DNA of 64,000 bases from Candidatus Latescibacterota bacterium (GCA_965242865.1 CBDETK010000013.1:3296001-3360000); one strand, 5' to 3'; counted from the first letter of the stretch, positions 25,025 through 40,236 are shown. A program made the numbers and translations. Notes: generated by a model not told the origin, from the sequence alone.

Positions 25025-25066
25025 CTGACGCATAAGGCGCATTCGGCGCCCACCGTCGTCATATTT

Positions 25067-25118
25067 GGGAATTATATACTTGATAAAGCAAAGTCAAGTA
25101 TATAATTCCCTTTTTTTT
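25067..25118 (+). terminator. 17-bp perfect stem-loop plus T-tract (terminator or operator)
   Basis: GGGAATTATATACTTGA-N10-TCAAGTATATAATTCCC then T8. Confidence 0.55.
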
Positions 25119-25156
25119 ATTGACCGAACTAAGCAGAGATTGCCGCTGGGCGGCCA

Positions 25157-26375
25157 GTGGCCGGGGCACAAGTGACGCTCTTTGACTTGGCTAATTTGCA
25201 TCGAGGCGCGGTGGCACGGGCGACGACCAATGAGTCCGGGTATTTCGCGCTGCCGCTGGCGTCGTTAGGCGGGTCGGCATTGCCGCAGGGATTTGCCCTA
25301 GGACAGAATTACCCCAACCCATTCAACCCTTCTACTATTATCCCCTATCAACTGCCCACGGCTACGCACGTGCAGATCGATGTGTTTAACGTGTTGGGAC
25401 AGCATGTTGCGACGCTGGTGGACGCGGAGCGGCAGGCCGGTTTTCACGCGGCGAAGTGGGACGCGACCGATGCGGCAGGGCAGGCGATGGCCGCTGGGGT
25501 GTACCTTTATCGGTTGACGGTGGGTGGAGAGCAGCAGATTAAGCGGATGGTGCTCATTGACGGGCAGGCGGGGATAGTAGCGGCGGCTTCCTCGGCAGCA
25601 GCGACTATGTCCACGGATGCGGCGGAGCGGGAATATGGTCTCGTCGTTTCAGGCGAGGGCTTGACGACCTATATGGATGCAGCTTTTGGAGTGCGGGCGG
25701 GGATGGCAGCGGTAGAGTTGGTAGTGGATGCGGCATTGCCTGTGGGGATCGGTCAAAGGATAGCGAGCGGGAAATGGGCTTCGGACAGCCCTCTGTATCG
25801 GGCTCCTGCTTGGTCTCCCGATGGTAGCCAAATCGCCTTCTCGTTTGGTTCTGATATTTACGTGATGGACGCGGATGGCTCTGGGCAGGCGCAAAAGCTA
25901 ACCTCTGAGATGACTGACGAGGGAGACAGCTCCGAGACGACCGACGAAGGGGATGGCTCCGAGACGACCGACGAAGGGGATGACCCTGAGATGACCGACG
26001 AAGGGGATGGCTCCGAGACGACCGACGAAGGGGATGACCCTGAGATGACCGACGAAGGGGATGGCTCCGAGACGACCGACGAAGGGGATGACCCTGAGAT
26101 GACCGACGAAGGGGATGGCTCCGAGACGACCGACGAGGAAGACGACGCTGAAACGACTGACGAGGGGGATGACGCTGAGACGACCGACGAGGGAGTATTA
26201 TACTAGGTCGGAGCGGGATGGCCCTCAGGGGCCTACATCCGGCCTTGGTCGCGTCATCCGGGGCGGCCACTTCGGCCATATCGACGGTGTGCGGTCGGCG
26301 TATCGGCACTTCCACTCGCCCGACGCCCGCAGCTATACCATCGGCGTCCGCCTACTCAGGATTCCGGAGGATTAA
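25157..26375 (+). pseudogene. fragmented secreted protein: FlgD-Ig/T9SS-like domain, PD40 repeat, acidic repeats, out-of-frame FGE-sulfatase C-terminus
   Basis: GQNYPNPFNPST, PAWSPDGSQIAF; RVIRGG...RSAYR...IGVRL in another frame; no RBS or signal peptide. Confidence 0.65.
25907..26194 (+). repeat. 27-bp coding tandem repeat, about 11 units, with 54-bp higher-order period
   Basis: Alternating SETTDEGDD / PEMTDEGDG units. Confidence 0.9.
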
Positions 26376-26395
26376 TTGCCTATTGCCACTAACCT

Positions 26396-26431
26396 AAAAA
26401 CCGGCCCCTTTCGCAGGGGTCGGTTTTTTTT
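26396..26431 (+). terminator. bidirectional rho-independent terminator
   Basis: AAAAACCGGCCCCT-TTCGC-AGGGGTCGGTTTTTTTT. Confidence 0.7.
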
Positions 26432-26447
26432 ATTTGTACGTCCAATA

Positions 26448-26591
26448 GATTTCTACGACCAAGTCCGGTGCGCCGAGGACATTCGCGCCGCCGAGCAACA
26501 GGGGCGCTCGCTCGTGGGAGACGAACAGGAGATCGGGCTGAACTGCGTCGCAGGGGGCGAAAAAGACCTCGCCCAAGCCTTGCTCCCGTAC
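26448..26591 (-). pseudogene. Uma2 endonuclease gene remnant
   Basis: Near copy of 28244-28409 with an internal deletion. Confidence 0.75.
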
Positions 26592-26606
26592 GTAAGGATG
26601 TATTAC

Positions 26607-26710
26607 CTTGGCAATGCCGCTCAACTCGCTACCTTGTTTGCGCTGGCCAATTTATACCTCGTCCGGAGACAACTGATGTATCGCCGCGTATTTGAGTTGG
26701 CGTACTCATT
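26607..26710 (+). mobile_element. IS5-family remnants
   Basis: NAAQLATLFALANLYLVRRQLM resembles an IS5 transposase C-terminus; 26674-26710 matches the reverse complement of 50786-50819 inside the IS5 copy. Confidence 0.55.
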
Positions 26711-26771
26711 TCTTTTGATACGCCATTCCCTTTTTTTAATCTCCTAACCATATCATATAAAGGAGAAAACA

Positions 26772-27749
26772 ATGTTGTTGAAATCCCTCAAAACCCTGCT
26801 TGGGTTCAGCCTTTTGGGCTTCGTCGTCGGTGTTTGGATTGGCTGCTCGTCCGACGCCTCACCAGTAGCCCCCCAACCTGCCGGCAAAACCCACCTGACC
26901 CTGACCAGTCCGACAGACTCTGACGGGGACGGCATCCCCGACGCCGACAGTACCCAGACCGCCGATTCTGACGGGGACGGCATCCCCGACGCCGACAGTA
27001 CCCAGACCGCCGATTCTGACGGGGACGGCATCCCCGACACCGATAGCACACCGACCTACGTTACGTTCGCCGACACCAGTCTGGAGCGTGCGGTGGGAGA
27101 AGCGCTCGTGGAGGCGTTGATTTTCCCGCAGGTGCCTACCTCGATTACCGTGGCGAATATGAGAAGCCTGACCGTGCTCAAAGCGAATTGGAGAGACATT
27201 AAGAGCTTGGCCGGCCTCGAATACGCTACGAATTTGGACACGCTGAATCTGGGCGGCAACAGCATTACGGCTCTGACTCCGCTGTCCAGCCTGACCAACT
27301 TGAAATGGCTGATGATGGAACGGAACAACATTACGGATGTGAGTCCGCTGTCCAGCCTGACCAACTTGGAAGAGCTGTATCTATACATGAACAAGATTTC
27401 GGATGTGAGTCCATTGGCCAGTCTGACCAACTTGACACGTCTGATGATAGGCGAGAACGAGGGAATTTCGGATATGAGTCCGTTGGCCAGTCTGCCCAAG
27501 TTGAAATGGCTGAAGATGAGAGGCGCCGGGATTGACGATGCGGAATTGCAAACGTTTGAAGGTCTGACCAACTTGACATTCCTGAGCCTGAACGGCAGCC
27601 CCTTTACGGATATAGAGCCGTTGACCTGTCTGCCCAACTTGGAAATCCTGAGGCTGGTTAAGGTTCACAACCTCAACGACGTATCTAAGAACACATATAT
27701 CCCTTACTTGCGAGCAAAAGACGTCGAGGTAACGTTGAATTGGGAATGA
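26772..27749 (+). CDS. internalin-like LRR lipoprotein 2 with DxDGDG repeats
   Basis: Paralogue of 24074..25024; lipobox WIGC; three DSDGDGIPD(A/T)D units. Confidence 0.88.
   Translation: MLLKSLKTLLGFSLLGFVVGVWIGCSSDASPVAPQPAGKTHLTLTSPTDSDGDGIPDADSTQTADSDGDGIPDADSTQTADSDGDGIPDTDSTPTYVTFADTSLERAVGEALVEALIFPQVPTSITVANMRSLTVLKANWRDIKSLAGLEYATNLDTLNLGGNSITALTPLSSLTNLKWLMMERNNITDVSPLSSLTNLEELYLYMNKISDVSPLASLTNLTRLMIGENEGISDMSPLASLPKLKWLKMRGAGIDDAELQTFEGLTNLTFLSLNGSPFTDIEPLTCLPNLEILRLVKVHNLNDVSKNTYIPYLRAKDVEVTLNWE
26916..27050 (+). repeat. 48-bp tandem repeat x3 (TSP3-like Ca-binding motif)
   Basis: gaytctgacggggacggcatccccgacgccgacagtacccagaccgcc repeated. Confidence 0.85.
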
Positions 27750-28014
27750 CGCATAAGGCGCATTCGGCGTCCACCGTCGTCATATTTGGGAATTATATAC
27801 TTGATAAAGCAAAGTCAAGTATATAATTCCCTTTTTCATATTGACCGAACTAAGCGGAGATTGCCGCTGGGCGGCCAGTGGCCGGGGCACAAGTGACGCT
27901 CTTTGACTTGGCTAATTTGCATCGAGGCGCGGTGGCACGGGCGACGACCAATGAGTCCGGGTATTTCGCGCTGTCGCTGTCGTCGTTAGGGGGGTCGGCA
28001 TTGCCGCAGGGTTT
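27747..28014 (+). repeat. duplicate of 25026-25293 (hairpin plus start of the FlgD-Ig fragment)
   Basis: Near-identical sequence, cut off at the Uma2 stop codon. Confidence 0.85.
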
Positions 28015-28573
28015 AGCCCACTGCAAAAATCTCGTTCAGATCAACGGCGAAGCCTTCAAGCGTCGGCGAGGTCAGCGTCTGTCCTTCGCCGTACAGCCCC
28101 ACCATCTCGAAAGTGTCCCCATCCAGCCGCAGCACCGTCGCGGTCCGAGCCTCTGGATCGACCAGCCAGTATTCCCGCACCCCGTGCTTTGCATACAGGC
28201 CGCGCTTGAGCGTCCGGTCGCGCCCGGCCGTGGAGGGCGACAAGATTTCTACGACCAAGTCCGGTGCGCCGAGGACATTCGCGCCGCCGAGCAACAGGTG
28301 TGCTCGCTCGTGGGAGACAAACAGGAGGTCTGGCTGAACTACGTCTGTGTTCGACAACACTACGTCGCAGGGGGCGAAAAAGACCTCGCCCAAGCCTTGC
28401 TCCCGTACGAAGCCATAGAGCCGAACTCCTAGCCTAACACCAATTCGCTGATGTCCTAAATTAGGCGCGGGGGACATGATCAATTCTCCGTCCAATAACT
28501 CGTAGCGTTGGTCATCCGGGGTGTGCTGATAGTCCTCATAGGTGAACTTGACAGCCGGCGTGGGGCTGAGCAT
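28013..28573 (-). CDS. Uma2 family endonuclease
   Basis: RYELLDGEL, VQPDLLFV, APDLVVEILSPST..RD, GVREYWLVDP; GAGGAG RBS. Confidence 0.92.
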   Translation of the reverse strand: MLSPTPAVKFTYEDYQHTPDDQRYELLDGELIMSPAPNLGHQRIGVRLGVRLYGFVREQGLGEVFFAPCDVVLSNTDVVQPDLLFVSHERAHLLLGGANVLGAPDLVVEILSPSTAGRDRTLKRGLYAKHGVREYWLVDPEARTATVLRLDGDTFEMVGLYGEGQTLTSPTLEGFAVDLNEIFAVG

Positions 28574-28739
28574 GGCAACCCTCCTCTCGTGTTTCTGCTG
28601 TTCTCGTTGCGTCCGGGACGAGGGCAAGATTCCCTCGGCCCTCGTAAGGCTAACGGCTGGTATGGTGTAGCAAGAGAAAATATATAAAAACAAAACCCTT
28701 CAACTGCCTGCCAAAGACTCGTCGCGCGCCGTTTTTAAT

Positions 28740-28785
28740 AAAAAAAACGGGGAGCTAGCGGACGAAAATGTCCACCAACTCCCCG
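28740..28785 (-). terminator. rho-independent terminator
   Basis: CGGGGAGTTGGTGGAC...GTCCGCTAGCTCCCCG followed by a T-run on the minus strand. Confidence 0.65.
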
Positions 28786-28812
28786 CTGGCCGAGCGCGGC
28801 TTGCGATGCCTA

Positions 28813-29067
28813 TTAGTTGAGGTCGAGGACCTCCTCTAGCGCCTCGATCTCTTGCAGGTCCATGTCGATGTCTAAGAGATCGGCTTCGCGCTGGCGGAAG
28901 AACTCCTCGCGCCGCCGCCGCTTGCGCGCATAAGGGGTCTCGATGTTGTAGAGCCGGCAGAGCCGGCTGAAACTGCCCGGGGCAATACCCAGCGCGCGGC
29001 TCGCTTCTTGGTTGCTCGCGTAGATGCGGGCCGCGCGCTTGATGCGTTCTGGTTCGATTTTGCGCAT
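28813..29067 (-). CDS. small HTH-like hypothetical protein
   Basis: SNQEASRALGIAPGSFSRLCRLYNI (Fis-like HTH); basic then acidic tail; RBS and terminator present. Confidence 0.65.
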   Translation of the reverse strand: MRKIEPERIKRAARIYASNQEASRALGIAPGSFSRLCRLYNIETPYARKRRRREEFFRQREADLLDIDMDLQEIEALEEVLDLN

Positions 29068-29896
29068 GAGTTGCTTTCTCTCCAGATCTTCAATTGGTGT
29101 GAAGTTCGACGAAATTCAACGAAAAAAAGCCGCAGCATTTTTGCGCCACGGCCATCAAAAAAGCCGCTGGAAAGCGGCTGTATCGAGTTCGATGTATCGC
29201 CGGTTTCCGGGACGCAAAAGTGCCCTCCTTCTCGAAAGCGCTGTCCCGAAAACCCCGTGGGAAAGCCCTTGCATACGCGGTCCATTGCGGAGGCGAAGGG
29301 AATTCCCGATGCGGCTGGGCGTTTTAGCCAGCCGATGCACACAACCTGAAGAGTCGTGCGTATATCCTAAGAGTTGGGACGAACGCGCAACGCGCGGATG
29401 CTGTTCGTAGCCCTCATATTTGGGACCTTATGGCCGCCCCCATTGGGGAACTGGCTCCTGAGAGTACTACACGAAGATCGACGTGCGAAGAGAATCATTC
29501 TTTGAGGCCTCCTCTCCATGGTGATGTGCATTTGCTTTGCACGGTTTTTGACTGCCTTTTAGTTTCAAGGTCAAGGTGATATATTGTCAAGGAAAAAATG
29601 CCTAAATTACAAAAATTAAAGAACTTTACGTCATTTTCTGAATATCTCTTAGTTAATACGAATACTTATAACAAATTCTGCGATCACCTCATCGCCGGCT
29701 GCGAGCCACACCGGCGGTTTGTGCGCAAACCCCACGCCCTGCGGGGTGCCCGTGAGGGCATGTCTTTCTCCTTTGTTTTCCAGCACTTGCACAAACGTTA
29801 AGGCCGGGCTGGTAGAACGTCAAATAACCTTGACGCTTGGAGTGGGGCCGCCTATTTTCCCCATTCTATTAGTAAACCCAACTCGAGGAAAAGAGC

Positions 29897-31309
29897 GTGC
29901 CCCCCAACGTCAGCGAAGAACATGTACGCAAGATAGTCGAAGAAGTGGTGCAGCGGGTCGTCAGCGGCCAAGATGGTCGCGACGGGGAGGACACCGGCGT
30001 CTTCGCGACAATCGACGCGGCGGTCCAAGGCGCAACCCGCGCCCAGCAGCAGTTGGTTGCCTCGTCGCTGGAGAAGCGCAAAAAGATCGTCGAGGCCCTC
30101 CGGCAGACAGCGCACGCCCATGCCGAGGAGTTTTCGCGCCGGGCCTTGGTCGAGACCGGGATGGGGCGGTTGGAAGACAAGATCGTCAAGCACCAAGTCG
30201 CGGCCGATACAACGCCCGGCGTCGAAGACCTAGAGGCGACTTCGTGGACCGGCGACCACGGGCTGACCGTCGTCGAAATGGCCCCCTACGGGGTCATCGG
30301 CGCAGTCACCCCATCGACCCATCCCGTGCCGACGATGGTCAACAACGCGATATGCATTGTCGCCGCGGGCAACTCGGTCGTCTTCAACGTCCATCCCGCG
30401 GGCAAAAAGGTCTCTATGTTTGCGGTGGGCTTGATCAATCGAGCCATCGTCGCGGCTGGTGGACCGGCCAATTTGGTGACCGCGGTCCAAACGCCGACCC
30501 TTGAAACCGCCAACGAATTGTTCAACCACCCGGATATCCGCCTCCTGCTGGTCACAGGCGGGCCGGGAGTGGCCAAGGCCGCGCTGGCCAGCCCCAAAAA
30601 GGCCATCGTCGCCGGCCCGGGCAATCCGCCGGTAGTGGTCGATGAAACGGCCGATTTGGCCCAAGCCGCGCGCGACATCATCGACGGAGGCGGCTTCGAC
30701 AACAACATTCTCTGCATCGGCGAGAAGCAGGTCTTTGCCGTCGCTTCAATTGCCGACGAACTCAAGCGGCTGATGGTCCAGTACAATGCCTACGAGCTCG
30801 ATGCGCGGCAGATCGAAGCCCTCGCGCAGGTGGCCTTTGTGCAAGGGCCGGACGGGGAGTGCGCAGCCAACCGCGAACTGGTGGGGCGCGACGCGGCCGT
30901 GCTGGCCGACCGCATCGGCCTCCGGCTCGATTCGTCGTTGCGCCTGCTCATTGGCGAGACCGACGCCAATCACGTTTTTGTGCGCGAGGAGCAGATGATG
31001 CCCTTTTTGCCGATCGTGCGGGTCCCCAACATCGATCAAGCCATCCGCGAGGCCGTCATCTCCGAGCACGGCTACGGGCACACGGCCGTGATCCATTCGC
31101 GCAACATCGAAAACATGCACAACATGGCCCGCGCCGTAGATACCACTATTTTCGTCAAGAATGGCCCTTCCTATGCCGGGGTTGGCTTGGGCGGCGAGGG
31201 CTTTGGGACCTACTCCATCGCCGGGCCTACGGGCGAGGGCCTGACCTCGCCGCGCACCTTTACCCGCCAGCGCCGCTGCGCCCTCGTTGATTACTTCCGC
31301 ATCGCCTGA
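29897..31309 (+). CDS. BMC acylating aldehyde dehydrogenase (EutE/PduP family) with N-terminal encapsulation peptide
   Basis: SEEHVRKIVEEVVQRV helix; TPSTHP, VTGG, AGPGNPP, FDNNILC (catalytic Cys), TGEG. Confidence 0.93.
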   Translation: MPPNVSEEHVRKIVEEVVQRVVSGQDGRDGEDTGVFATIDAAVQGATRAQQQLVASSLEKRKKIVEALRQTAHAHAEEFSRRALVETGMGRLEDKIVKHQVAADTTPGVEDLEATSWTGDHGLTVVEMAPYGVIGAVTPSTHPVPTMVNNAICIVAAGNSVVFNVHPAGKKVSMFAVGLINRAIVAAGGPANLVTAVQTPTLETANELFNHPDIRLLLVTGGPGVAKAALASPKKAIVAGPGNPPVVVDETADLAQAARDIIDGGGFDNNILCIGEKQVFAVASIADELKRLMVQYNAYELDARQIEALAQVAFVQGPDGECAANRELVGRDAAVLADRIGLRLDSSLRLLIGETDANHVFVREEQMMPFLPIVRVPNIDQAIREAVISEHGYGHTAVIHSRNIENMHNMARAVDTTIFVKNGPSYAGVGLGGEGFGTYSIAGPTGEGLTSPRTFTRQRRCALVDYFRIA

Positions 31310-31623
31310 TGCTCTTGGGCCAAGTCAAAGGGCACTTGGTTGCCACGGCCAAGGTCCCGAGCCTCAACGGCAAGAAGCTCTTAGTCGTCGAAATCGCGTC
31401 GGTGCGCGAGCACGGTCTGGTGCTGACGGGGCGGGATATGGTCTGCATTGACGCGGTACAGGCGGGCATGGGCGAGCTGGTAATTTTGGTGCAGGGCAGC
31501 TCGTCGCGGATCGCCCCAGACTTGGGCGATGTGCCAACCGACGCGGTAATCGTCGGGATCGTCGATTCGCTACAGGCCATGGGCAAGGATTTCGACTGTC
31601 GGCAACTGAGTCGCGAAAGATAA
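31309..31623 (+). CDS. BMC vertex protein (EutN/CcmL, BMC-P)
   Basis: MLLGQVKGHLVAT.K...DAVQAGMGE...GSSSR...DAVIVGIVD. Confidence 0.93.
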   Translation: MLLGQVKGHLVATAKVPSLNGKKLLVVEIASVREHGLVLTGRDMVCIDAVQAGMGELVILVQGSSSRIAPDLGDVPTDAVIVGIVDSLQAMGKDFDCRQLSRER

Positions 31624-31625
31624 GC

Positions 31626-32306
31626 ATGGGCGTTGCACCCGCGGCCGGATTGGACCGCAAGCAGATCGAGGGGCTGGTGCGCCGGGTGGTGTACGATCAC
31701 CTGCCGGACGCCCAGCTCGCGCAGGCACCGCCCGCCCCGAGGCTGGTCGTCAATATGTCCGCCCGCCACGTCCACCTCAACCAAGAGGGGCTCGACGCGC
31801 TCTTTGGCGCGGGGGCCGAGTTGACCGTCCAGAAGGCCCTGTACCAAGAGGGGGCTTTTGCCGCCGAGCAAACGGTATCGGTTTTTGGGCCGCGCAAGCA
31901 GGTGATTCCCAACGTCCGCATCCTCGGCCCCTTGCGCGATTACAACCAAGTGGAGCTGGCTTTTACGGACGCCCGCTTCTTGGGCATTGACGCGCCAGTG
32001 CGGCTCAGCGGCCACATCGACGGGACGCCCGGCTGCTACTTGGTCGGGCCGGCCGGGGGGCTAACGCTCCACCGCGGCGTGATCCGGGCCGCCCGCCACG
32101 TCCACCTAAACCCGGCCGAGGCCGCGTACTACGAGGTCGGCCCGGGGGACTTGCTGCGGCTGGTGGTAGAAAGCGAGCAGGGCGGAGTGCTCGAAGGGTT
32201 GATCTGCCGAGTCGGCGACCGCGAGCACTTGGAGGTTCACATCGACACGGACGAGGGCAATGCGATTGATTTGGTACATGCCCGCAAGGTATATTTGGAG
32301 CGTTAA
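31626..32306 (+). CDS. pduL: PduL phosphate acyltransferase with encapsulation peptide
   Basis: DRKQIEGLVRRVV; SARHVHL, RILGPLR, AARHVH, HIDTDEGNA. Confidence 0.93.
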   Translation: MGVAPAAGLDRKQIEGLVRRVVYDHLPDAQLAQAPPAPRLVVNMSARHVHLNQEGLDALFGAGAELTVQKALYQEGAFAAEQTVSVFGPRKQVIPNVRILGPLRDYNQVELAFTDARFLGIDAPVRLSGHIDGTPGCYLVGPAGGLTLHRGVIRAARHVHLNPAEAAYYEVGPGDLLRLVVESEQGGVLEGLICRVGDREHLEVHIDTDEGNAIDLVHARKVYLER

Positions 32307-32343
32307 ACGCAACAATCCGCACAATTACTTCAGGAGGTAAGGG

Positions 32344-32907
32344 ATGTCGGATGCAATAGGCATGGTAGAAACCGTGGGGCTGGTCGGAGTCGTCGAGGCC
32401 GGCGACGCCATGGCCAAGGCCGCCAGCGTCCAGCTTTTGGGCTGGGATCGCGTCGGCTCCGGCTTGGTGACAGTGTTTTGCTCGGGCGACGTGGCAGCCG
32501 TTAAGTCGGCCGTGGACGCCGGTTCAACCGCCGCGGCCAAGGTCGGGGAGGTGCATTCGGTACACGTGATTCCCCGCCCGCACAGCGAGTTGACGGCCGT
32601 CGTGCCCGAGCGCGACGACAGCAGCGACAGCGACGACCGCATCCGCGCCTTGGGCCTCATTGAGACGAAGGGCACCATCGGCGTGGTCGAAGCGGCCGAC
32701 GCCATGAGCAAGGCCGCCGACGTGGAGATCGTCAAGCTCCAAGACATCGGCGGCGGGTACATCACCGTCATCGTCAGCGGCGACGTGGGCTCGGTACAGG
32801 CTTCGGTCAGTGCCGGTGCTGAATCGGCCGAGCGCGTGGGCGAGCTCGTAGCGCAGCACGTGATTCCCCGCCCCCACGACGATCTCGTCGCGCTATACTT
32901 GCAGTAG
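32344..32907 (+). CDS. BMC shell protein with two tandem domains
   Basis: Two copies of A(I/L)G(M/L)(V/I)ET.G...DAM.KAA...GDV...HVIPRPH. Confidence 0.93.
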
Positions 32908-32918
32908 AGGAGAGAACA

Positions 32919-33182
32919 ATGAAAGCATTGGGTATGGTCGAGACCCGCGGTTTGGTTTGCGTCGTCGAAGCCCTCGACGCCATGTTAAAAACCGCGGACG
33001 TGAGCTATGCGGGCCAAAAGCGCGTGGGCAGCGGCCTAATCACCGTACTAGTCGAAGGCGACGTAGCGGCCGTCAAAGCGGCCGTGGATGCGGGAGCGCA
33101 AGCCGCCCAGCGCATCGGCGAGCTGCGCAGCGTCCACGTAATTCCCCGTCCAACTGAAGGACTGACCGATCACCTTGGTTAG
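32919..33182 (+). CDS. BMC-H hexamer shell protein
   Basis: [19 protein letters not shown] pore loop, [15 protein letters not shown]. Confidence 0.95.
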
Positions 33183-33186
33183 CTAG

Positions 33187-33594
33187 ATGGCCGAGGCTTT
33201 GCACATCGACGTTCCGGTCGTCACCGGCGACGTGCTCGGGCGCACCCACCAGGGCGAGCGGGTCCTCAGCGTCTCCCCCGGTGCCATCCTGACGCCGACG
33301 GCTTGGGATTACATCCGCCAGCACCGGTTGCAACTGCGGCGCGGCGAGGCCGGCGAGGCCCCCGCCGACAGCGGTTGCGAGCACGAGGAATTTGGTTCGG
33401 GGTACGTTGAGCCAGCGCGTTGCGGCGATTGCGCTGTCCACCAGCGCAAGAAGGCCGGCGATGCCGCGGCGAGTTGCACCGGCTGCAATCGCTACAAGAC
33501 GCTTTTACAACAAATTGAGCAGGGCCAAGCCATCGCCCCAGAAGCCTTAGTTGAGCAGATCACCGAGCTAGTAATGCACCGGCTGGCAGACTAA
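33187..33594 (+). CDS. BMC-associated protein with Cys cluster and C-terminal encapsulation peptide-like helix
   Basis: GAILTPTAWDYIR; CGDC and CTGC motifs; PEALVEQITELVMHRL. Confidence 0.7.
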   Translation: MAEALHIDVPVVTGDVLGRTHQGERVLSVSPGAILTPTAWDYIRQHRLQLRRGEAGEAPADSGCEHEEFGSGYVEPARCGDCAVHQRKKAGDAAASCTGCNRYKTLLQQIEQGQAIAPEALVEQITELVMHRLAD

Positions 33595-33597
33595 GCA

Positions 33598-34176
33598 ATG
33601 GCCGGGGCAGTCGGCATGATCGAGGTGGAGGGCGTGGCCGCGGCCATTGTGGGGGCGGATGCGGCCTGCAAGGCCGCGGACGTGCAGCTCGCAGGCTGGG
33701 CATCGATCGGCGGTTATACCACGGCCTTTTTCACCGGGTCCATCAGCGATGTGGCCGCGGCACTGCAAAGCGGCGAAGAAGCCGCGCGAAGAATAATAGA
33801 ACACGTGGTAGCCGTACCCCTCCACCAACCCGCCGCGGCCTGTCGCCATTTTGTCGATTTTCCGGCCGGGGACCCCAGCGACGTTCCGGCTGGGGCCTTG
33901 GGGTTGGTCGAGACGCGCGGCTACGGGGTCCACATCCACACCAACGATCAAATGGTCAAGACAGCGGCTGTCGAGGTAATCAAGGTGCTGACGGTCCACG
34001 ACCGCGTGGTCTGTTCGCTGGTACTGGGCGACATCGGGGCTGTCACCGAAGCCATCGCGGTCGCGCAACAGCGGCTCGCCGGCTGCGAGCGCTTGCTGGG
34101 CACGGCCCTGATCCCGCAGCCCCGGCCCGAGGTCTTAGCTGCCTACGCCGGGCCGCTGGGAGCGAGCGGTGTCTAG
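33598..34176 (+). CDS. divergent two-domain BMC shell protein
   Basis: AVGMIEVEG..DAACKAA; ALGLVETRG..DQMVKTA..GDIGAV..IPQP. Confidence 0.88.
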   Translation: MAGAVGMIEVEGVAAAIVGADAACKAADVQLAGWASIGGYTTAFFTGSISDVAAALQSGEEAARRIIEHVVAVPLHQPAAACRHFVDFPAGDPSDVPAGALGLVETRGYGVHIHTNDQMVKTAAVEVIKVLTVHDRVVCSLVLGDIGAVTEAIAVAQQRLAGCERLLGTALIPQPRPEVLAAYAGPLGASGV

Positions 34177-35353
34177 CGGGGCAATCGGCGTCCTGGAGAC
34201 GCGCGGCATGGCGTCGCTCATGGCTTCCACCGACGCCATGCTCAAGGCCGCGGACGTGCAGCTCTGTGGGCGGCACGGCATTGGTTCGGGTTGGCTCACC
34301 GCCGTAATCGCCGGTCGAGTGGCTGATGTAGAAGCGGCCCTTGGCGTCGGCGAGGTCGAGGCGAACCGCACGGGCGAACTGATTGGTGCCCACGTGGTGC
34401 CGCGCCCGGTTGCGTCCGCCATGGACGCCATGCCCCACGCAGCGGGCCTCAGTGCCGAACAGGTCCCGGCCGGGGCGATTGGCCTACTGGAAACGCAGGG
34501 CCTGACGCCGCTCGTGGCAGGTGCTGACGCCATGCTCAAGGCCGCCCAAGTGACGCTCGGGGGTTGGGCCTTCATCGGCGGTGCCCTGTGCCACGCGCCG
34601 GTCTTTGGCGATGTAGCGACCGTGCAGACAGCCCTAGCGGCCGGCCGGCAAGCCGCCGAGCGGCTTGGCACCGTGTACGCGACCCTCGTTTTACCCCAGC
34701 CCAGCGACGGGCTAGGCCCGCTGATGCCACCTGCGCCGCCGGCCGCGCCGCGCTCCACCGGGGCCTTGGGCCTCATCGAGACCATTGGTTACGCCGCGGT
34801 CGTGGGCAGTGCCGACGCCATGCTCAAGGCCGCGGATGTCCAAATTGAGCGCTTGAGCATCGGCAGCGGCGGGCGGATCGCCGCGCTGGCCACGGGCCAA
34901 CTCGATGACGTGCAGGCCGCCGTGCGCGCCGGTGCCGAGTCCGCCACGGCCTTGGGGCAGCTCGACGCCTCGGCCATAGTCTCTGGGCCTGATCCCATGC
35001 TAGTAGCCCGCTTTGCGACCGCGCCCGAAGGGTTGGGGCCGGGGGCGCGGCAGGCCATGGGGCTGATTGAGACGCGCAGCACCGTGGCCTTGGTGCAGGC
35101 TGTCGATCGGATGCTCAAGGCCGCGGCCGTCGAATACGAGGGGGCCTATAAGGTGGGATACTACCTGACGGCCGCCGTCGTCCGCGGCGATGTCGGCGCG
35201 GTGCAAGTCGCCATAGACGCCGTAGGGCAGGCCCCCGTGCCTGCCCCAACCAGGGGGCCTGCCCCGCCCAGATCCCCAACCGGCGACTTGGTCTCGGCTT
35301 ACGCAATTCCCCAGCCTTACAGCGGCCTCGAAGGTCGCCTGCCGCACGTTTAG
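34169..35353 (+). CDS. BMC shell protein with four tandem domains
   Basis: AIGVLETRG, AIGLLETQG, ALGLIETIG, AMGLIETRS, each followed by D(A/R)MLKAA. Confidence 0.9.
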   Translation: MSSGAIGVLETRGMASLMASTDAMLKAADVQLCGRHGIGSGWLTAVIAGRVADVEAALGVGEVEANRTGELIGAHVVPRPVASAMDAMPHAAGLSAEQVPAGAIGLLETQGLTPLVAGADAMLKAAQVTLGGWAFIGGALCHAPVFGDVATVQTALAAGRQAAERLGTVYATLVLPQPSDGLGPLMPPAPPAAPRSTGALGLIETIGYAAVVGSADAMLKAADVQIERLSIGSGGRIAALATGQLDDVQAAVRAGAESATALGQLDASAIVSGPDPMLVARFATAPEGLGPGARQAMGLIETRSTVALVQAVDRMLKAAAVEYEGAYKVGYYLTAAVVRGDVGAVQVAIDAVGQAPVPAPTRGPAPPRSPTGDLVSAYAIPQPYSGLEGRLPHV

Positions 35354-35365
35354 CGAGGACGCGAA

Positions 35366-36520
35366 ATGATTCGGATTGACGATGCAGTGATTACCGCTCA
35401 GACCTTGGAGAGCCGCCTAGCGGGCGAACGGCAGGTCGAGATCGGCCCCGGGGCTAAACTGACGCCCTCGGCGCAGGATTTTTTGCGCGTCCAAGGCGTT
35501 GAGGTGGTCCGCCGGGAAGCGGGTCGCCAAGCCCCGCCAACGCCAACGCCAACACCAGCGGCTCCTCAGGCATTTGCCGGCATTTTCTGCCCCAATGTCG
35601 TCCTTTTCGACCGCCAGAACGCGATCAACCACGCCGAGATGGAGCGCTACATCAACTGGCTGATTGAGGTTGGAATCCACGGGCTGTATCCCAACGGCAG
35701 CACGGGCGAGTTTGCCCGCCTGTCGCGCGAGGAGCGCGGAGATGTGGTGCGATTGGTCTGCGAGGTCAACAAGGGGCGCGTCCCGGTGCTGGCCGGCGCC
35801 AGCGAAGCCAATGTGCGCGATGTGCTCGAAATGGCCGAATACTACGCCTCGCTCGGGGTGGATGCCATTGCGCTGATGCCCCCCTATTACTATGAGATTT
35901 CCCCAGAAAGCCTCTTTGAGTACTTCGCCGAAATCGCCGAAGCATCGCCGCTGGACATCCTGCTGTACAACATCCCGCAATTTACCCAAGAGCTGTCGCT
36001 GGACTTGATGGAGCGGCTCTTGCCCTACGAGCGAATCTTCGGCACCAAGGACTCCAGCCGCGACCTGCCTCGGCTGCTCAACACCATGCACCGCCTGCGC
36101 CAACAGCGATCCGACTACGTGGTGATGACCGGCTGCGAGGAGATCGTATTCCCCGCGGTGATGATGGGCGCCAGTGGGGGCACCATCGCCACTTCGGGTA
36201 TCGTCCCGGAAGTCATCGTCGAGCTGTACGAAAGGGCCACGAGCGGCGACGTGGAGCGGGCCCGCGAGCTCCAATACCGCATCCTCGACCTAATTAACCT
36301 CATGCTCTTGGGCGTCAACTTCCCAGAGGGCTTTAAGACCGGGGTGGCAGCCCGCGGCTTCGACGTAGGCCCGGCGCGCACCGCGAGCAGCGCGGCCGAG
36401 CAGGAGTACCTGCTCAAGCTAGAGGGCCAAATCAACTGCGTCCTCGCGGATATGGGCTATCCCGTCCGCGGTCCCCGCGCCTGCCCGCCCACCGACCTGC
36501 CATCGATCGTCGGGCGCTAG
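35366..36520 (+). CDS. DHDPS/NAL-family Schiff-base aldolase/dehydratase with N-terminal BMC-associated domain
   Basis: NGSTGE, PPYY, LYNIP, GTKDSS; N-terminal GAKLTPSAQDFLR domain and PTPTPTP linker. Confidence 0.88.
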   Translation: MIRIDDAVITAQTLESRLAGERQVEIGPGAKLTPSAQDFLRVQGVEVVRREAGRQAPPTPTPTPAAPQAFAGIFCPNVVLFDRQNAINHAEMERYINWLIEVGIHGLYPNGSTGEFARLSREERGDVVRLVCEVNKGRVPVLAGASEANVRDVLEMAEYYASLGVDAIALMPPYYYEISPESLFEYFAEIAEASPLDILLYNIPQFTQELSLDLMERLLPYERIFGTKDSSRDLPRLLNTMHRLRQQRSDYVVMTGCEEIVFPAVMMGASGGTIATSGIVPEVIVELYERATSGDVERARELQYRILDLINLMLLGVNFPEGFKTGVAARGFDVGPARTASSAAEQEYLLKLEGQINCVLADMGYPVRGPRACPPTDLPSIVGR

Positions 36521-37594
36521 ATGGCCCTCGCGAGCGCGGGTGTGCTGGTGGTCGGGGCCGGTATCATCGGCCGCTCGATAGCCTATTTCCTCATGCGGCA
36601 AAACGCGCAGGTCACCCTGCTCGACGAGGGCATCGCTGTCGGCTCGCCCACGAGCCGGGCCTCTTTGGGCGTCCTTACCCACTGCAACGGCGGCGACAAT
36701 CCCTACGCCGAGCTTTTGCGCGACGGCCATGCCCTACACGCCCAGCTAGCCCGCGACCTCGACGCAGAGCTGGGGGCGGACGTGGGCTGGCGGCCCCTCG
36801 GCGGCATCGAGCTTTTTGCCGACCCATCCGAGCTAGAAGCGGTATGGCACTTCAATCGCGCCCGCGGCTGTCGGGTCGAGCGGCTCGACGCGCGGGCCTT
36901 GCGCGCTGCGGAGCCGGCGTTGGCTGGCGGCGAGGGCCTGTACTTTGCCGACGATCACCGGGTGGATCCCGTCAAACTGGGCGCGGTGCTTTGGGCGGCG
37001 GCCGCCCAGCGGGGTGCGGCCGCCGCTTGGGGCGAGCGCGTCTGGCGCGTTGCCCAAGCGGGCGAAACCGTTGAGGTCGCTACCAGTCGCGGAACGCACC
37101 GCGCCGATTTTGCGGTCTTGGCCGCTGGGGCCTGGACCGGCGGCTTGGCCGCCCAGCTCGGCGCCCGAGTCGCGTTGCGCCCGGTGCGGGGCCAGCAAGC
37201 GCGTTTTACGGGTGCCCCACTGCGCCACCTAGTGCGGGCAAACGGACGCCACCTCATTCCAGACAGCGGCGAAACGGTCGTGGGATCGACTGTGGAGGAG
37301 GTCGGCTTCCGGTTGGCAACGACCCGCGCGGCCGCGGTGCAGTTCGCCGCGGAGGTCCGTGCGGTGCTGGGGCGGTGCTTGCCCTTGTCGCGCCAGTGGG
37401 CCGGCCTGCGACCCAAGCCCCGGGGCGGGCGTCCGCTCATCGGCCCGCTGACGGACGCGCCGCGGGTTTTTGTCGCTGCTGGGCACTACAAAAACGGCGT
37501 CTTGCTCGGCCCGATTACCGGCCAAATCGTCGCTCGCTGGATCGCCGAGGGCACCCCGGGGCGCGACATGCGCCGCTTTGCGCCCGAGCGTTGA
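36521..37594 (+). CDS. FAD-dependent oxidoreductase, DAO/glycine oxidase (ThiO)-like
   Basis: GAGIIG, AAGAW, PVRGQ, WAGLRP, GHYKNGVLLGP. Confidence 0.85.
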   Translation: MALASAGVLVVGAGIIGRSIAYFLMRQNAQVTLLDEGIAVGSPTSRASLGVLTHCNGGDNPYAELLRDGHALHAQLARDLDAELGADVGWRPLGGIELFADPSELEAVWHFNRARGCRVERLDARALRAAEPALAGGEGLYFADDHRVDPVKLGAVLWAAAAQRGAAAAWGERVWRVAQAGETVEVATSRGTHRADFAVLAAGAWTGGLAAQLGARVALRPVRGQQARFTGAPLRHLVRANGRHLIPDSGETVVGSTVEEVGFRLATTRAAAVQFAAEVRAVLGRCLPLSRQWAGLRPKPRGGRPLIGPLTDAPRVFVAAGHYKNGVLLGPITGQIVARWIAEGTPGRDMRRFAPER

Positions 37595-37627
37595 ACGTAG
37601 CTCCACCTAACACCGTTGAGGTTAAAC

Positions 37628-38569
37628 ATGCCATTGCAAAAAGAAGACCTACTCGCCGCGCTAAATTCGGTGACCTCCATCCCGGTGGTCCCCTTTCGCG
37701 GCGGGCGAATCGACTACGACGCCCACGCCAAGAACATCAACTACCTGATGGAAAACAACCACTTAGACGGCGGTCGGCCCCGGGTGATTGGCATCGCCGG
37801 CACCAGCTTGGTCCACCACATTAGCGCGGACGAGCAGGTGCGGTTGTTGGGATGTACCGGCGAGCTGATGGGAGGGCGCGGGGTGCTGATGGCCGGGATT
37901 GCCCCCAATCCGGTTGGGGATGCCGAGCGGTTGATCGAGCGGGAGGCCGCGCTCGAATACTCCCCGGATGTCTATCTCGTCATGCCGCTTACTGGCGTGG
38001 CCAATCCAGAGGGCATTTTTGCGTACTACGCGGATTTTGCCGAGCGGTTGGGGCGTGCGTGCGGAGCCAAGTTGCTCTACTACCTGCGCAACCAAGCCGA
38101 GCGCGAAACCGCCGTGCGGCTGATGAACGAGTCCGAGCACTTCGTCGGGCTGAAGATCGGCACCACGGTTGAGGACGTCGAGCCGATTGTCGCGGGGGTA
38201 AAAGAGGGAACGGCACTGGTGATATGGGGCGTGGGAGACCGCTCAACCGGGCCGGCCGAGCGCGGCACCAAAGGCCATACCTCGGGCATCAACGTGGCTT
38301 TCGCCCGCGCCTCCGACGCGATCAACAACGCCCAGCGCCGCGGCGATTTTGCGACCTCCCAGCAGATTGAAAACCAACTCGCGGCCCTGGAGGAGATTCG
38401 CTTCCGCAACGGCCGCATGTACAACTATTCAGCCGTAGTTGAGGCCATGCACTTGGGGGGGTTTAGGGATGTGGATGGCGGCGAGGGCGGCCCGTTCAAT
38501 CCGCGGGTGCCGGCCGAAGTCGCTGCGGAAGTGGCCGCGGCCATAGCCGACATTATGCACTATCACTAG
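37628..38569 (+). CDS. divergent DHDPS-family protein (KDG dehydratase-like)
   Basis: IPVVPF..G.IDY, LYYLR, VGLK; lacks the canonical GxTGE motif. Confidence 0.65.
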   Translation: MPLQKEDLLAALNSVTSIPVVPFRGGRIDYDAHAKNINYLMENNHLDGGRPRVIGIAGTSLVHHISADEQVRLLGCTGELMGGRGVLMAGIAPNPVGDAERLIEREAALEYSPDVYLVMPLTGVANPEGIFAYYADFAERLGRACGAKLLYYLRNQAERETAVRLMNESEHFVGLKIGTTVEDVEPIVAGVKEGTALVIWGVGDRSTGPAERGTKGHTSGINVAFARASDAINNAQRRGDFATSQQIENQLAALEEIRFRNGRMYNYSAVVEAMHLGGFRDVDGGEGGPFNPRVPAEVAAEVAAAIADIMHYH

Positions 38570-38868
38570 CCAACCCGGCGCAGCCGCGCCAGATAGGCGG
38601 CCCATTCGACCGGGAGCAGGTGCTGCTTTTGGCTGTTGCAGTGCTTGCAACAAGGGACCACGTTGGACTTGGCAGTTTGGCCGCCGCGGATGAGCGGCAC
38701 CACGTGGTCCATGGTCAGCTCTTCGGGCGCAAACGACTGCTCGCAGTAGTAGCATTGGCCAGCGGCCCGTTTGCGCTTCCACCACTCGGAGCGGCGCAAC
38801 CCCTTGGCCTTGGTTTTCTCTCGGGCGACGTGCTCGGCGTCGGCCGGGACGAAGTAGTTATTTTTCAT
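38566..38868 (-). CDS. HNH endonuclease
   Basis: CYYC, TMDHVVP, SNVVPCCKHCNSQK. Confidence 0.9.
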   Translation of the reverse strand: MKNNYFVPADAEHVAREKTKAKGLRRSEWWKRKRAAGQCYYCEQSFAPEELTMDHVVPLIRGGQTAKSNVVPCCKHCNSQKQHLLPVEWAAYLARLRRVG

Positions 38869-38926
38869 GGGAGATCAAGATGGCGCAGTTGTGAGCACCG
38901 TGCGAAGCCAATCACAAGTTCGGAAA

Positions 38927-39340
38927 TTACGCTGCTTGGTATCCCAAGTTCCACACGCGCAGGAGATCGCGACATCCCTGTTCAAAAGTTTGCGTAAAAT
39001 CGATTAACTGAATGGAAAACAGCGTCCAAGAAAGTTGCCCGTAGTTACAGGGTTGGTGCAAAAGGGGAATCATTTTGTTTTCAAAGTGATTCAGATGAAA
39101 AGAAAACATCAGTTCTTTCTTTACCCAAGTGGATCTCACTGAATTCGGCGATAAGACAAGCACAAACCAATCGCAGCGGAGAATCGCTTCACCAATTTCA
39201 TCATGCCATTGCTGGCCCCCAAGGACATTGGATCGACTGTACCAGACGCGAAGCCCATGCCGCCGCATCATGTCGACCAACTCTTCTACAAACTGCCGAT
39301 CTTGGTCAGAATGCGAAAGAAAAATTTCCGTTGGCAACAT
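38927..39340 (-). CDS. standalone TIR domain protein (TIR_2)
   Basis: IFLSHSDQD, LVLSPNSVRSTWVKKEL. Confidence 0.9.
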   Translation of the reverse strand: MLPTEIFLSHSDQDRQFVEELVDMMRRHGLRVWYSRSNVLGGQQWHDEIGEAILRCDWFVLVLSPNSVRSTWVKKELMFSFHLNHFENKMIPLLHQPCNYGQLSWTLFSIQLIDFTQTFEQGCRDLLRVWNLGYQAA

Positions 39341-39343
39341 AAT

Positions 39344-39790
39344 TCAAGAGATTGATGCAGATGTAGGCGGGGAGCTTGCTATATCGTTTTCCAGAATTGC
39401 CTGTGCGATTTGTTTAATCCCTTCTTCTTCCTCGTCGTATTCACCCATATCGATTATATGTAAGTGCCGAAGAATCCATGGAATCTCTTCTTTGGGTAGC
39501 TCTTCTGGATCGCCTACAAGGACGGGGATTAGGCGTTTGCGATAGTTTTGTTCGCCAAGAGCATACTCAATTTCCCGGCGTACCCAACTTGAACGCAGCG
39601 CGTCGGCGGTCAGGAGGACGACCATGGCTTCTGACTCTTTTAATGCCTGCGCTACCTTCTCCGTCAAAGTTTCCTCATACAGGATTTCACGGGTGGCATC
39701 CCACACGTCAAGGCCAGCTTTTTCTAAGCCTATCGCAACCTTCTTGACAAAAGGCTCATCCTTATACGCATGACTAATAAAGACTTTCAT
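39344..39790 (-). CDS. standalone TIR domain protein (TIR_2)
   Basis: VFISHAYKD, SSWVRREIEYA, LIPVL. Confidence 0.9.
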   Translation of the reverse strand: MKVFISHAYKDEPFVKKVAIGLEKAGLDVWDATREILYEETLTEKVAQALKESEAMVVLLTADALRSSWVRREIEYALGEQNYRKRLIPVLVGDPEELPKEEIPWILRHLHIIDMGEYDEEEEGIKQIAQAILENDIASSPPTSASIS

Positions 39791-39819
39791 AATCCAAACT
39801 ATCCTTTTCAACTTTTTAG

Positions 39820-40236
39820 CTACAAAGAGCACCTGCGAATAGCAGCTACGATGTTATTTGTTTGCCAACCAACCATTTCCTTGGCAAGGCACTGCACTTC
39901 AATCGGCACACGTTCTTGACCCCAAGGAGTAACTCCGATAATTGGCTTTTCATGGGATATGGCGATGGAGATTTCTTCCTGAATCCACTTTCTGTGGTTG
40001 ACATACATTCCAGAAACCACAAGAAAGCAGTTAATCGGGGCGATTTGTCGGTTAAGTGCTTGGCGTAGTTCCCCATCTGTCTTTGTTCCCAGTGGATCGT
40101 GCTCTGGAACTGAGTAATTGCGCCAATAGAAGTACGGTGCTTCATAGAGCAAACTCTCAAGGCGGTAGTACTCGGAGTTTTCGGCTCGACGCCATACATG
40201 ACTCAAAAAAAGATCATACATTTTAAGTTTTGGCAT
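39820..40236 (-). CDS. ThsB-like TIR protein (DUF1863/MTH538)
   Basis: LFLSHVW, NYSVP, GMY..HRKWIQEEI, KPIIGV.PWGQE; AAGGAGG RBS. Confidence 0.88.
   Translation of the reverse strand: MPKLKMYDLFLSHVWRRAENSEYYRLESLLYEAPYFYWRNYSVPEHDPLGTKTDGELRQALNRQIAPINCFLVVSGMYVNHRKWIQEEISIAISHEKPIIGVTPWGQERVPIEVQCLAKEMVGWQTNNIVAAIRRCSL

Follow-up and report, generated by a model that had tools for sequence, protein, structure and literature searches.

The DNA analysed here is a 64,000-nucleotide stretch from Candidatus Latescibacterota bacterium (GCA_965242865.1 CBDETK010000013.1:3296001-3360000), hereafter the window, which at positions 29897-38569 carries a bacterial microcompartment (BMC) operon of 11 co-oriented, tightly spaced genes on the + strand, as delimited by ORF listing and Pfam searches. 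By comparison with the published catalogue description, we assign this operon to the MUF2 type of metabolosome locus, which is catalogued but uncharacterised. It encodes a CoA-acylating aldehyde dehydrogenase (AldDH), a PduL-type phosphotransacylase (PTAC), shell proteins that include a two-domain (T192) and a four-domain (Q394) protein, a Cys-rich protein (Cys135), a Schiff-base enzyme of the DHDPS/NAL family (DHDPS1), an FAD-dependent oxidoreductase (DAO) and a divergent DHDPS-like protein (DHDPS2). The reading we prefer, with some reserve, is that the compartment is supplied with aldehyde by two or more lyases, among them a class II aldolase and DHDPS1, and that DAO and DHDPS2 form an older unit that is probably not cargo.

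A first-pass annotation of the window had described a co-oriented operon with AldDH, EutN, PduL and four shell genes in the interval 29897-38569. The ORFs and Pfam matches bear this description out, except that a 135-aa Cys-rich ORF (33187-33594) had been overlooked. The operon was also said to contain no diol dehydratase, ethanolamine ammonia-lyase, glycyl-radical enzyme, class II aldolase, alcohol dehydrogenase or acyl kinase, and Pfam indeed gave no match to any of these families among the 11 operon products.

MUF2 is described from 13 loci by Sutter, Melnicki, Schulz, Woyke and Kerfeld (2021, Nat Commun 12:3809, PMC8217296, supplementary file 4). According to this description, a protein encoded between BMC-H and the BMC-Ts in five loci has a C-terminal encapsulation peptide (EP) and six conserved Cys, and its N-terminal domain recurs in a nearby pfam00701 class I aldolase; a term search of the supplements finds pfam00701 mentioned once, in this place. 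The description further gives four BMC-P genes, three of them as a triplet, BMC fusions that are double or 'very unusual quadruple', and a class II aldolase as the candidate signature enzyme. The main text places MUF2 among the loci lacking an obvious signature enzyme, and the catalogue's passages on MUF2 give no function and assign no signature role to the pfam00701 enzyme. In a search of the full-text literature the name 'MUF2' occurred alongside microcompartment in the catalogue and its preprint only, and in the passages retrieved for 'class I aldolase' with bacterial microcompartment the aldolases concerned are DERA of SPU loci.

We identify the operon as MUF2 because the locus features named in the catalogue passage recur here, save for the differences given below. 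The Cys-rich protein with its C-terminal EP-like helix is encoded between BMC-H and BMC-T and shares its N-terminal domain with the pfam00701 enzyme, and the genome has four PF03319 matches (1 + 3), two 2-domain BMC proteins and one 4-domain BMC protein. AldDH (PF00171) and PduL (PF06130) have conserved N-terminal amphipathic helices: that of AldDH, EEHVRKIVEEVVQRVV, is EP-like, precedes a Gly-rich linker and is kept in the 12 orthologues inspected, and the EP-like helix of PduL, LDRKQIEGLVRRVVYD, is likewise kept in the orthologues inspected. As in the catalogue, relatives with the locus are labelled Gemmatimonadetes, Latescibacterota and Handelsmanbacteria. The window's genome differs from the catalogue passage in that its class II aldolase gene has no neighbouring BMC-H gene, its BMC-P triplet is split off beside lytB, and its Cys-rich protein lacks the segment that holds the first conserved Cys. 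The earlier proposal of an uncharacterised BMC type therefore stands only in part: this is a metabolosome of unsolved function, but one already catalogued as MUF2 together with its pfam00701 aldolase. Beyond the catalogue passages go the portability of a T192-Q394-DHDPS1 trio, a wider distribution of the N-terminal domain, the absence of the aldolase tail in the shell-less relatives checked and the independence of DAO-DHDPS2, which we describe below.

DHDPS1 consists of an N-terminal domain (N-domain; residues 1-55), a Pro/Ala linker, a catalytic barrel (residues 70-354) and a conserved C-terminal tail. The catalytic set GSTGE/Tyr/Lys, noted as intact in the first-pass annotation, is invariant in 29/29 aligned orthologues (GSTGE at residues 111-115, Tyr201 and Lys228), as is the longer motif GSTGEF. 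The best solved relative is the KDG/KDPG aldolase 4uxd (1.1e-36), which has the motif YNIPQFT in common with DHDPS1, and among solved structures DHDPS1 lies about equally near to 4uxd, DapA and YagE. KDG-type and YagE-type enzymes cleave 2-keto-3-deoxy acids. DHDPS1 is unlikely to be a DapA, because the invariant Phe206 replaces the aligned Arg of the DapA structure 2yxg, which follows the YN(V/I)P motif and which we take to bind aspartate semialdehyde; the score against the DapA equivalog TIGR00674 is 155 bits, under its cut-off of 206.15. The tail extends past the usual barrel (residues ~345-384, window positions 36400-36520), reads ...DMGYxVxGxRACPVTNLPPIVGR and has invariant Cys373, Pro374 and Thr376.

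The DHDPS1 gene is tied to shell genes in relatives, as the first-pass annotation had anticipated. Scanning one genome per GTDB species yielded 74 loci, 71 of which hold full-length DHDPS1 orthologues (64-93% identity) in metagenome-assembled genomes labelled Latescibacterota, Gemmatimonadota and Handelsmanbacteria. By tblastn with the operon proteins, T192 followed by Q394 is found directly upstream of DHDPS1 in all 66 loci with at least 1.9 kb of upstream sequence. The end of T192 overlaps the start of Q394, here over 8 bases and in 28 relatives with known coordinates over a few. Where at least 5.8 kb of upstream sequence is available (n=59), AldDH, PduL and the Cys-rich gene are present in 45 loci; in the remaining 14, T192-Q394-DHDPS1 stands alone in a flank with no AldDH, PduL or Cys135. 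Five of these trio-only genomes have other BMC domains at a distant site. Two such sites (L091 and L092) are PVM-like, with genes for PduL, BMC-H, BMC-P, AldDH and an EP-tagged class II aldolase, and in L091 Pfam also detects an acetate kinase. Their AldDHs are 57-58% identical to that of the window, and the DHDPS1 proteins of the PVM-like genomes are about 70% identical to ours. Given that the trio lies apart from AldDH and PduL in 14 loci and has PVM-like partner loci, T192-Q394-DHDPS1 behaves as a portable module serving two locus architectures.

DHDPS1 has no classical EP; its N-terminus is a conserved domain of ~55 aa, not a short helix. The same domain begins the Cys-rich protein, where it is followed by a Cys-rich middle part and a C-terminal EP-like helix, LVEQITELVMHRL; over DHDPS1 residues 2-53 the two copies are identical at 21/52 positions (40%, E 2e-9). 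A profile built from 18 N-domains matches twice in the window's genome, each time within the operon. The order to which the window belongs comprises 76 genomes from one family and 18 genera, and 67 of these have two N-domains or one. The N-domain thereby closely tracks the quadruple shell gene, Q394 having a full-length match in 65/76 genomes; the two discordant genomes are fragmented. In each of five PVM-like genomes the N-domain occurs once, in DHDPS1 only, and therefore the Cys-rich protein is not needed as its partner. The 18 members matched no meaningful Pfam family, and against PDB sequences they gave one chance-level match (E 0.015).

Across 1.84 billion representative proteins the N-domain profile had 1270 matches at E <= 1e-3, 140 of them at E <= 1e-10. 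In about 95 of the best 150 matches the domain lies behind the N-terminus, mostly from ~residue 35, in proteins mostly of 200-320 aa. Three of five such sequences read start with an EP-like helix, for example LDSKTLERIVMEVVQQIL, with the N-domain after the helix. PF02502 matched 4/11 of such proteins weakly, and a profile of 32 of them matched the structures of LacB and RpiB (4.2e-6 and 5.1e-6), which places an RpiB/LacB-like domain after the N-domain. The N-terminal part of this profile has a weak match to the N-terminus of EutC, and 18 of the 32 proteins weakly match TIGR02536, an ethanolamine-utilisation family. Their architecture fits that of the RPI of SPU-BMCs as described in PMC11585597. 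Judged from the sequences of these proteins, the N-domain of DHDPS1 appears to be a domain otherwise seen in EP-bearing compartment proteins, and from this distribution we infer encapsulation of DHDPS1. Taken with the shell-gene synteny, this supports the earlier suggestion that the DHDPS-family enzyme belongs to the compartment, and makes DHDPS1 very likely cargo.

In the Cys-rich family itself, an alignment of 25 sequences shows five invariant Cys and one that is nearly invariant. The window's copy lacks a ~13-aa GRCxHPDRxC segment present in the other 24, and with it the first, nearly invariant Cys, through either a true in-frame deletion or a fault in the assembly.

The DHDPS/NAL-family enzymes had been put forward as the only candidates for the source of aldehyde. 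This did not hold up for the genome, since a class II aldolase with a targeting tail is encoded on the same contig and undercuts an aldehyde source of DHDPS type alone. The gene (G000:C13:910480-911271) is the only PF00596 gene of the assembly, lies 2.4 Mb from the operon among housekeeping genes, and has no BMC-H gene beside it; in the relative G067 a BMC-H gene is adjacent. Its product ends in ...STLVERITEEVLRQLR, an EP-like helix. Orthologues with at least 61% identity are found in 63/76 genomes of the order. A tail like LVERITEEVLRQLR is present in 32/32 orthologues read, 30 from the order and two from the PVM-like loci, and absent in 3/3 orthologues from genera g9 and g7 (G016, G018 and G014; L166, L167 and L168), which are 62-66% identical. 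The test for BMC domains covered two of these three genomes, G016 and G014, and found none in either. The absence of the tail in the shell-less relatives checked is good evidence that the class II aldolase is compartment cargo.

The two lyases are distributed as a mosaic over the 76 genomes of the order: 53 carry both the aldolase orthologue and DHDPS1, 10 the aldolase orthologue only, 7 DHDPS1 only and 6 neither. Because the genomes are related to one another, the counts portray this mosaic and cannot serve as a statistical test. G015 has a MUF2 locus and the aldolase orthologue, and no DHDPS1; a MUF2 locus can thus have the class II aldolase as its sole visible lyase. Among the DHDPS1-only genomes, G033 and G041 are 75% and 58% complete, and the fragmented G025, G027 and G029 gave no PF00596 match. 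G011 and G012 (5 and 1 contigs) have the locus with DHDPS1, and the only class II aldolases present in them are EP-less and non-orthologous, so DHDPS1 can equally be the only visible lyase of such a locus.

This last pair of genomes is part of the case for the explanation favoured in the first-pass annotation, in which DHDPS1 alone would be the signature enzyme and the distant class II aldolase would play no part. The operon encodes no other lyase, DHDPS1 sits beside shell genes in all 66 informative loci, the genome (93.6% complete) has no match to RhaA or the FucI N1 domain, and MUF2 is counted in the catalogue's main text among loci with no obvious signature enzyme (PMC8217296). We nevertheless regard this explanation as unlikely. 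It does not account for a tail that is constant in the 32 aldolases and missing from the three g9/g7 orthologues, nor for the 53 of 60 DHDPS1 genomes that also carry the aldolase orthologue. It is also at odds with G015, and with the two PVM-like main loci read, which hold the aldolase inside and DHDPS1 in a satellite.

In the two-lyase model that we prefer, the shell would enclose AldDH and PduL as an aldehyde-processing core. The first lyase, the class II aldolase with its C-terminal EP, would make aldehyde inside the shell. The second, DHDPS1, would be a class I Schiff-base pyruvate aldolase recruited by its ~55-residue N-domain rather than by a classical peptide, and would cleave a 4-hydroxy-2-oxo acid to pyruvate and an aldehyde. 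AldDH would convert the aldehyde to acyl-CoA, and PduL the acyl-CoA to acyl-phosphate. DHDPS1 would travel with T192 and Q394 as a three-gene module, in the manner of the EutABC + EutL add-ons, and DAO and DHDPS2 would represent an older two-gene unit of the chromosomal site. We favour an aldehyde common to DHDPS1 and the class II aldolase, because DHDPS1 also serves PVM-like loci at about 70% identity and the AldDHs of the two locus types are 57-58% identical. As a tentative first guess, one that could easily prove wrong, this aldehyde may be lactaldehyde from 2-keto-3-deoxy-6-deoxyhexonates (2-keto-3-deoxy-L-fuconate or -rhamnonate). Glycolaldehyde from keto-deoxy-pentonates and glyoxylate from 4-hydroxy-2-oxoglutarate come next.

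DHDPS1 could also be cargo and yet catalyse another kind of reaction, as a dehydratase, a deaminase or decarboxylase, a pyruvate-consuming synthase, or a maker of a semialdehyde such as 2,5-dioxopentanoate. Enzymes of these kinds occur in the superfamily, among them KdgD and pyrroline-4-hydroxy-2-carboxylate deaminase. DHDPS1 has sub-threshold NCBIfam matches to KdgD models (1e-28 to 8e-33), which are accompanied by matches to lyases, and the score of the solved 3na8, a putative synthetase that is uncharacterised, comes close to those of the aldolases. We give this possibility as little credence as that of DHDPS1 acting alone. DHDPS1 matches aldolases and DapA best and has exactly the YNIPQFT motif of the KDG aldolase 4uxd, and the PVM-like partner loci point to small aldehydes. 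A hydroxyproline route, which comprises D-hydroxyproline dehydrogenase and pyrroline-4-hydroxy-2-carboxylate deaminase, was considered and rejected: the genome has no match to the Pro_racemase family, which leaves this route unsupported, and DAO is ThiO-like.

DAO falls in the glycine-oxidase (ThiO)-like branch of its family. Its nearest solved relatives are the glycine oxidases 4ysh and 1ryi (about 1e-31), and it retains the GLRP motif aligned with glycine oxidase, whose Arg presumably binds the substrate carboxylate; HCY of 1ryi, which we take to be active-site residues of glycine oxidase, aligns to GRH. The match to TIGR02352 (glycine oxidase ThiO) reaches 172.9 bits, under the cut-off of 250.8, and DAO has no terminal extension in the 12 orthologues inspected. 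DHDPS2 has the uncharacterised 3e96 and 3d0c as best solved relatives and matches only 'DHDPS family protein' clusters in the protein atlas. Where the available DNA allows the test (68 loci), DAO comes after DHDPS1 in 53 and DHDPS2 likewise in 48. Orthologues of DHDPS2 occur in 62/75 other genomes of the window's family, in 0/92 genomes sampled from other families of the phylum, and were not found in the five PVM-like genomes.

In G016 (1 contig) and G019 (2 contigs), each 92% complete, the DAO-DHDPS2 pair lies between lytB/FAH and LON-domain/DtxR/Feo genes, and neither genome has a BMC domain. These same neighbours flank the whole MUF2 locus in other genera. Because the pair occurs in shell-less relatives, DAO and DHDPS2 are probably peripheral to the compartment, neither core nor cargo. 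The second, divergent DHDPS that had been noticed after a DAO-like oxidase is borne out by Pfam as a weak match (PF00701, 2.3e-11).

Several observations weigh against the two-lyase model. DHDPS1 scores beneath every NCBIfam equivalog cut-off, and its reaction is assigned from the superfamily. A supply of fuculose or rhamnulose phosphate is not evident in a genome with no RhaA or FucI N1 match, no sugar-acid dehydratase gene lies beside the locus (MR_MLE genes are found elsewhere), and no alcohol dehydrogenase for NAD+ recycling is encoded in the operon. The single acetate kinase gene of the genome is 2 Mb away, at C13:5392443. MUF2-type loci with Cys135-T192-Q394-DAO and no DHDPS1 exist in G015, G020 and G021, and DHDPS1 is therefore dispensable. 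In the single-contig G020 and G021 (L133 and L131) a MUF2 shell, AldDH and PduL are present, the locus ends Cys-rich-T192-Q394-DAO, and DHDPS1, DHDPS2 and the aldolase orthologue are all missing; the model does not explain the source of aldehyde in these two genomes. In the window DAO starts at the base after the DHDPS1 stop codon, with zero gap, and across loci Cys135 and DAO are both present in 45, both absent in 14 and never discordant. DAO may thus be functionally tied to the compartment after all.

A pathway driven by the ThiO-like DAO would make use of these last points. The substrate of DAO would be glycine, an N-substituted glycine or a D-amino acid, oxidised to glyoxylate or a 2-oxo acid on which DHDPS1 and/or DHDPS2 would then act, and the Cys-rich EP protein would be the electron acceptor or adaptor of DAO. 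The abutting genes, the concordance of Cys135 with DAO and the GLRP motif fit this idea, as do G020 and G021, which keep only DAO beside shell and core and have genes for a dimethylglycine-dehydrogenase-like protein and a homocysteine S-methyltransferase upstream of lytB. We hold it to be the least probable of the three alternatives, given the pair at the same chromosomal site in the BMC-free G016 and G019, the lack of DHDPS2 in the five PVM-like genomes and of DAO after DHDPS1 in the 14 trio-only loci, the lack of a terminal extension on DAO, and a TIGR02352 score that does not reach the cut-off.

The shell set encoded by the operon comprises one BMC-H, two tandem BMC, one four-domain BMC and one BMC-P protein. 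A family search of the assembly places all 9 BMC domains of the genome in this main locus; of its four PF03319 matches, one is the operon copy and the others are the triplet beside lytB (G000:C13:5462503-5463298), 2.1 Mb away. Q394 has one conserved edge Lys in each of its domains (K26, K124, K220 and K317). A PduT-like Fe-S pore in T192 was set aside, as we read His, not Cys, at the pore position, which we take to be equivalent to the Fe-S pore site of PduT. A complex prediction for Q394, T192 and residues 1-60 of DHDPS1, run with no controls, gave a score of 0.00 and is evidence neither way.

A further reading can be put forward as a speculation, which we judge doubtful. T192-Q394-DHDPS1 would be a portable substrate-extension module of a novel design, in which the two domains of T192 and the four of Q394 add up to one asymmetric pseudohexamer of 1:1 composition, each of its six pore loops being different. 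In this scheme the ~55-residue N-domain would provide a second, non-peptide mode of cargo attachment, used by DHDPS1, the Cys-rich EP protein, the RpiB-like proteins and, weakly, the TIGR02536 eut proteins, and would dock the class I aldolase at this tile so that a 2-keto-3-deoxy acid is cleaved on entry through the pore.

Three known systems offer comparisons. The PVM metabolosome acts on fucose and rhamnose and employs a class II aldolase, AldDH, PTAC and acetate kinase. The window's AldDH is 57-58% identical to those of PVM-like loci whose genomes carry T192-Q394-DHDPS1. Unlike PVM, our operon has no aldolase of this class, no kinase and no lactate/malate-dehydrogenase-type gene; it has another shell set, with tandem and quadruple fusions, and adds DHDPS1, Cys135, DAO and DHDPS2. 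The description of MUF2 likewise calls its AldDh closest to that of PVM (PMC8217296). SPU loci combine the class I aldolase DERA with an RpiB-family RPI, which is described as an EP followed by a linker of ~75 residues, termed 'less conserved', and an RPI fold, and is reported to bind DERA (PMC11585597). They resemble the present system as we read it in that a metabolosome makes use of a class I Schiff-base aldolase, in SPU as the signature enzyme, and in that homology to the DHDPS1 N-domain extends to RpiB-like proteins that begin with an EP-like helix. They differ in that DERA is a pfam01791 enzyme acting on a sugar phosphate and DHDPS1 belongs to pfam00701, and in that the stretch between EP and RPI is called a less conserved linker in the SPU description (PMC11585597). 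EUT modules (EutABC + EutL) extend the substrate range of another BMC according to the catalogue (PMC8217296), and like the 14 trio-only loci they show an enzyme travelling with dedicated shell proteins apart from the main locus. The enzyme family and the shell proteins are different, and for the trio an extension of substrate range is our proposal.

The search for the signature enzyme of MUF2 is thereby narrowed to two lyases, the class II aldolase with its EP-like tail and the class I aldolase of the DHDPS family, with the DAO-DHDPS2 pair set apart as probably irrelevant. In several types of compartment the N-domain may serve generally to attach cargo. Should DHDPS1 prove to cleave a keto-deoxy sugar acid within the shell, non-phosphorylative sugar-acid catabolism would join the compartmentalised pathways.

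Table 1. Genes of the MUF2-type operon, with window coordinates and best family matches
Product	Position	Strand	Family evidence
AldDH, CoA-acylating, 470 aa	29897..31309	+	PF00171 E 5.6e-34; NF011927 658 bits vs cut-off 403
BMC-P (EutN/CcmL) pentamer protein, 104 aa	31309..31623	+	PF03319 9.7e-24
PduL-type phosphotransacylase (PTAC), 226 aa	31626..32306	+	PF06130 6.1e-64
T187, tandem (2-domain) BMC shell protein, 187 aa	32344..32907	+	PF00936 2 stretches, 3.5e-52
BMC-H shell protein, 87 aa	32919..33182	+	PF00936 4.8e-27
Cys-rich protein (Cys135), 135 aa	33187..33594	+	no Pfam family
T192, tandem (2-domain) BMC shell protein, 192 aa	33598..34176	+	PF00936 2 stretches, 1.6e-31
Q394, quadruple (4-domain) BMC shell protein, 394 aa	34169..35353	+	PF00936 4 stretches, 7.4e-70
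DHDPS1, DHDPS/NAL-family class I (Schiff-base) enzyme, 384 aa	35366..36520	+	PF00701 6.3e-57, 192.9 bits vs cut-off 22.1
DAO, FAD-dependent oxidoreductase, glycine-oxidase (ThiO)-like branch, 357 aa	36521..37594	+	PF01266 4.3e-54
DHDPS2, divergent DHDPS-like protein, 317 aa	37616..38569	+	PF00701 2.3e-11 (weak)

Spacing between the 11 genes (Table 1) ranges from the 8-base overlap to 37 bases. The operon lies on a 5.6-Mb contig (C13) of the window's own assembly (G000), which has 6.8% contamination. Searches of the operon proteins against the whole genome by tblastn found no close paralogues, and the genes around the MR_MLE, FAH and Zn-ADH homologues of the genome are ordinary ones for sugar acids and housekeeping, with no link to the locus. 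Two promoter-like sites were found where 2.4 are expected, not above chance; one of them, at 29830-29858, precedes the AldDH gene.

The G+C content of the operon is 0.64-0.675, and that of the flanking stretches is lower, 0.54-0.555. In other genera the MUF2 locus is flanked by lytB/FAH on one side and by LON-domain/DtxR/Feo genes on the other; in this genome these flanks are replaced, and lytB with the BMC-P triplet is now 2.1 Mb off. The upstream stretch (24074-29410, G+C 0.54-0.555) encodes two LRR proteins, a FlgD_ig/Por_Secre_tail protein and a Uma2-family nuclease. Directly past the operon, on the - strand (38566-40236, G+C 0.54), lie an HNH endonuclease gene (38566-38868) and three TIR-domain genes of TIR_2 and ThsB-like type (38927-39340, 39344-39832 and 39820-40236), possibly a defence island.

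Members of the FAH (fumarylacetoacetate hydrolase) family include diketo-deoxy-sugar-acid hydrolases. An FAH-family gene on the opposite strand recurs across L033, L048, L132 and L165: in several genera it stands between lytB or the BMC-P genes and the remaining locus, and in the shell-less G019 it adjoins DAO. The sequencing runs listed include none of RNA, and those labelled 'sponge metagenome' contain 0.51-0.61 of the operon's sampled words, a habitat hint only. Two relatives, L023 and L041, have an insertion within the operon, which puts ~4.3 kb between the Cys-rich gene and T192.

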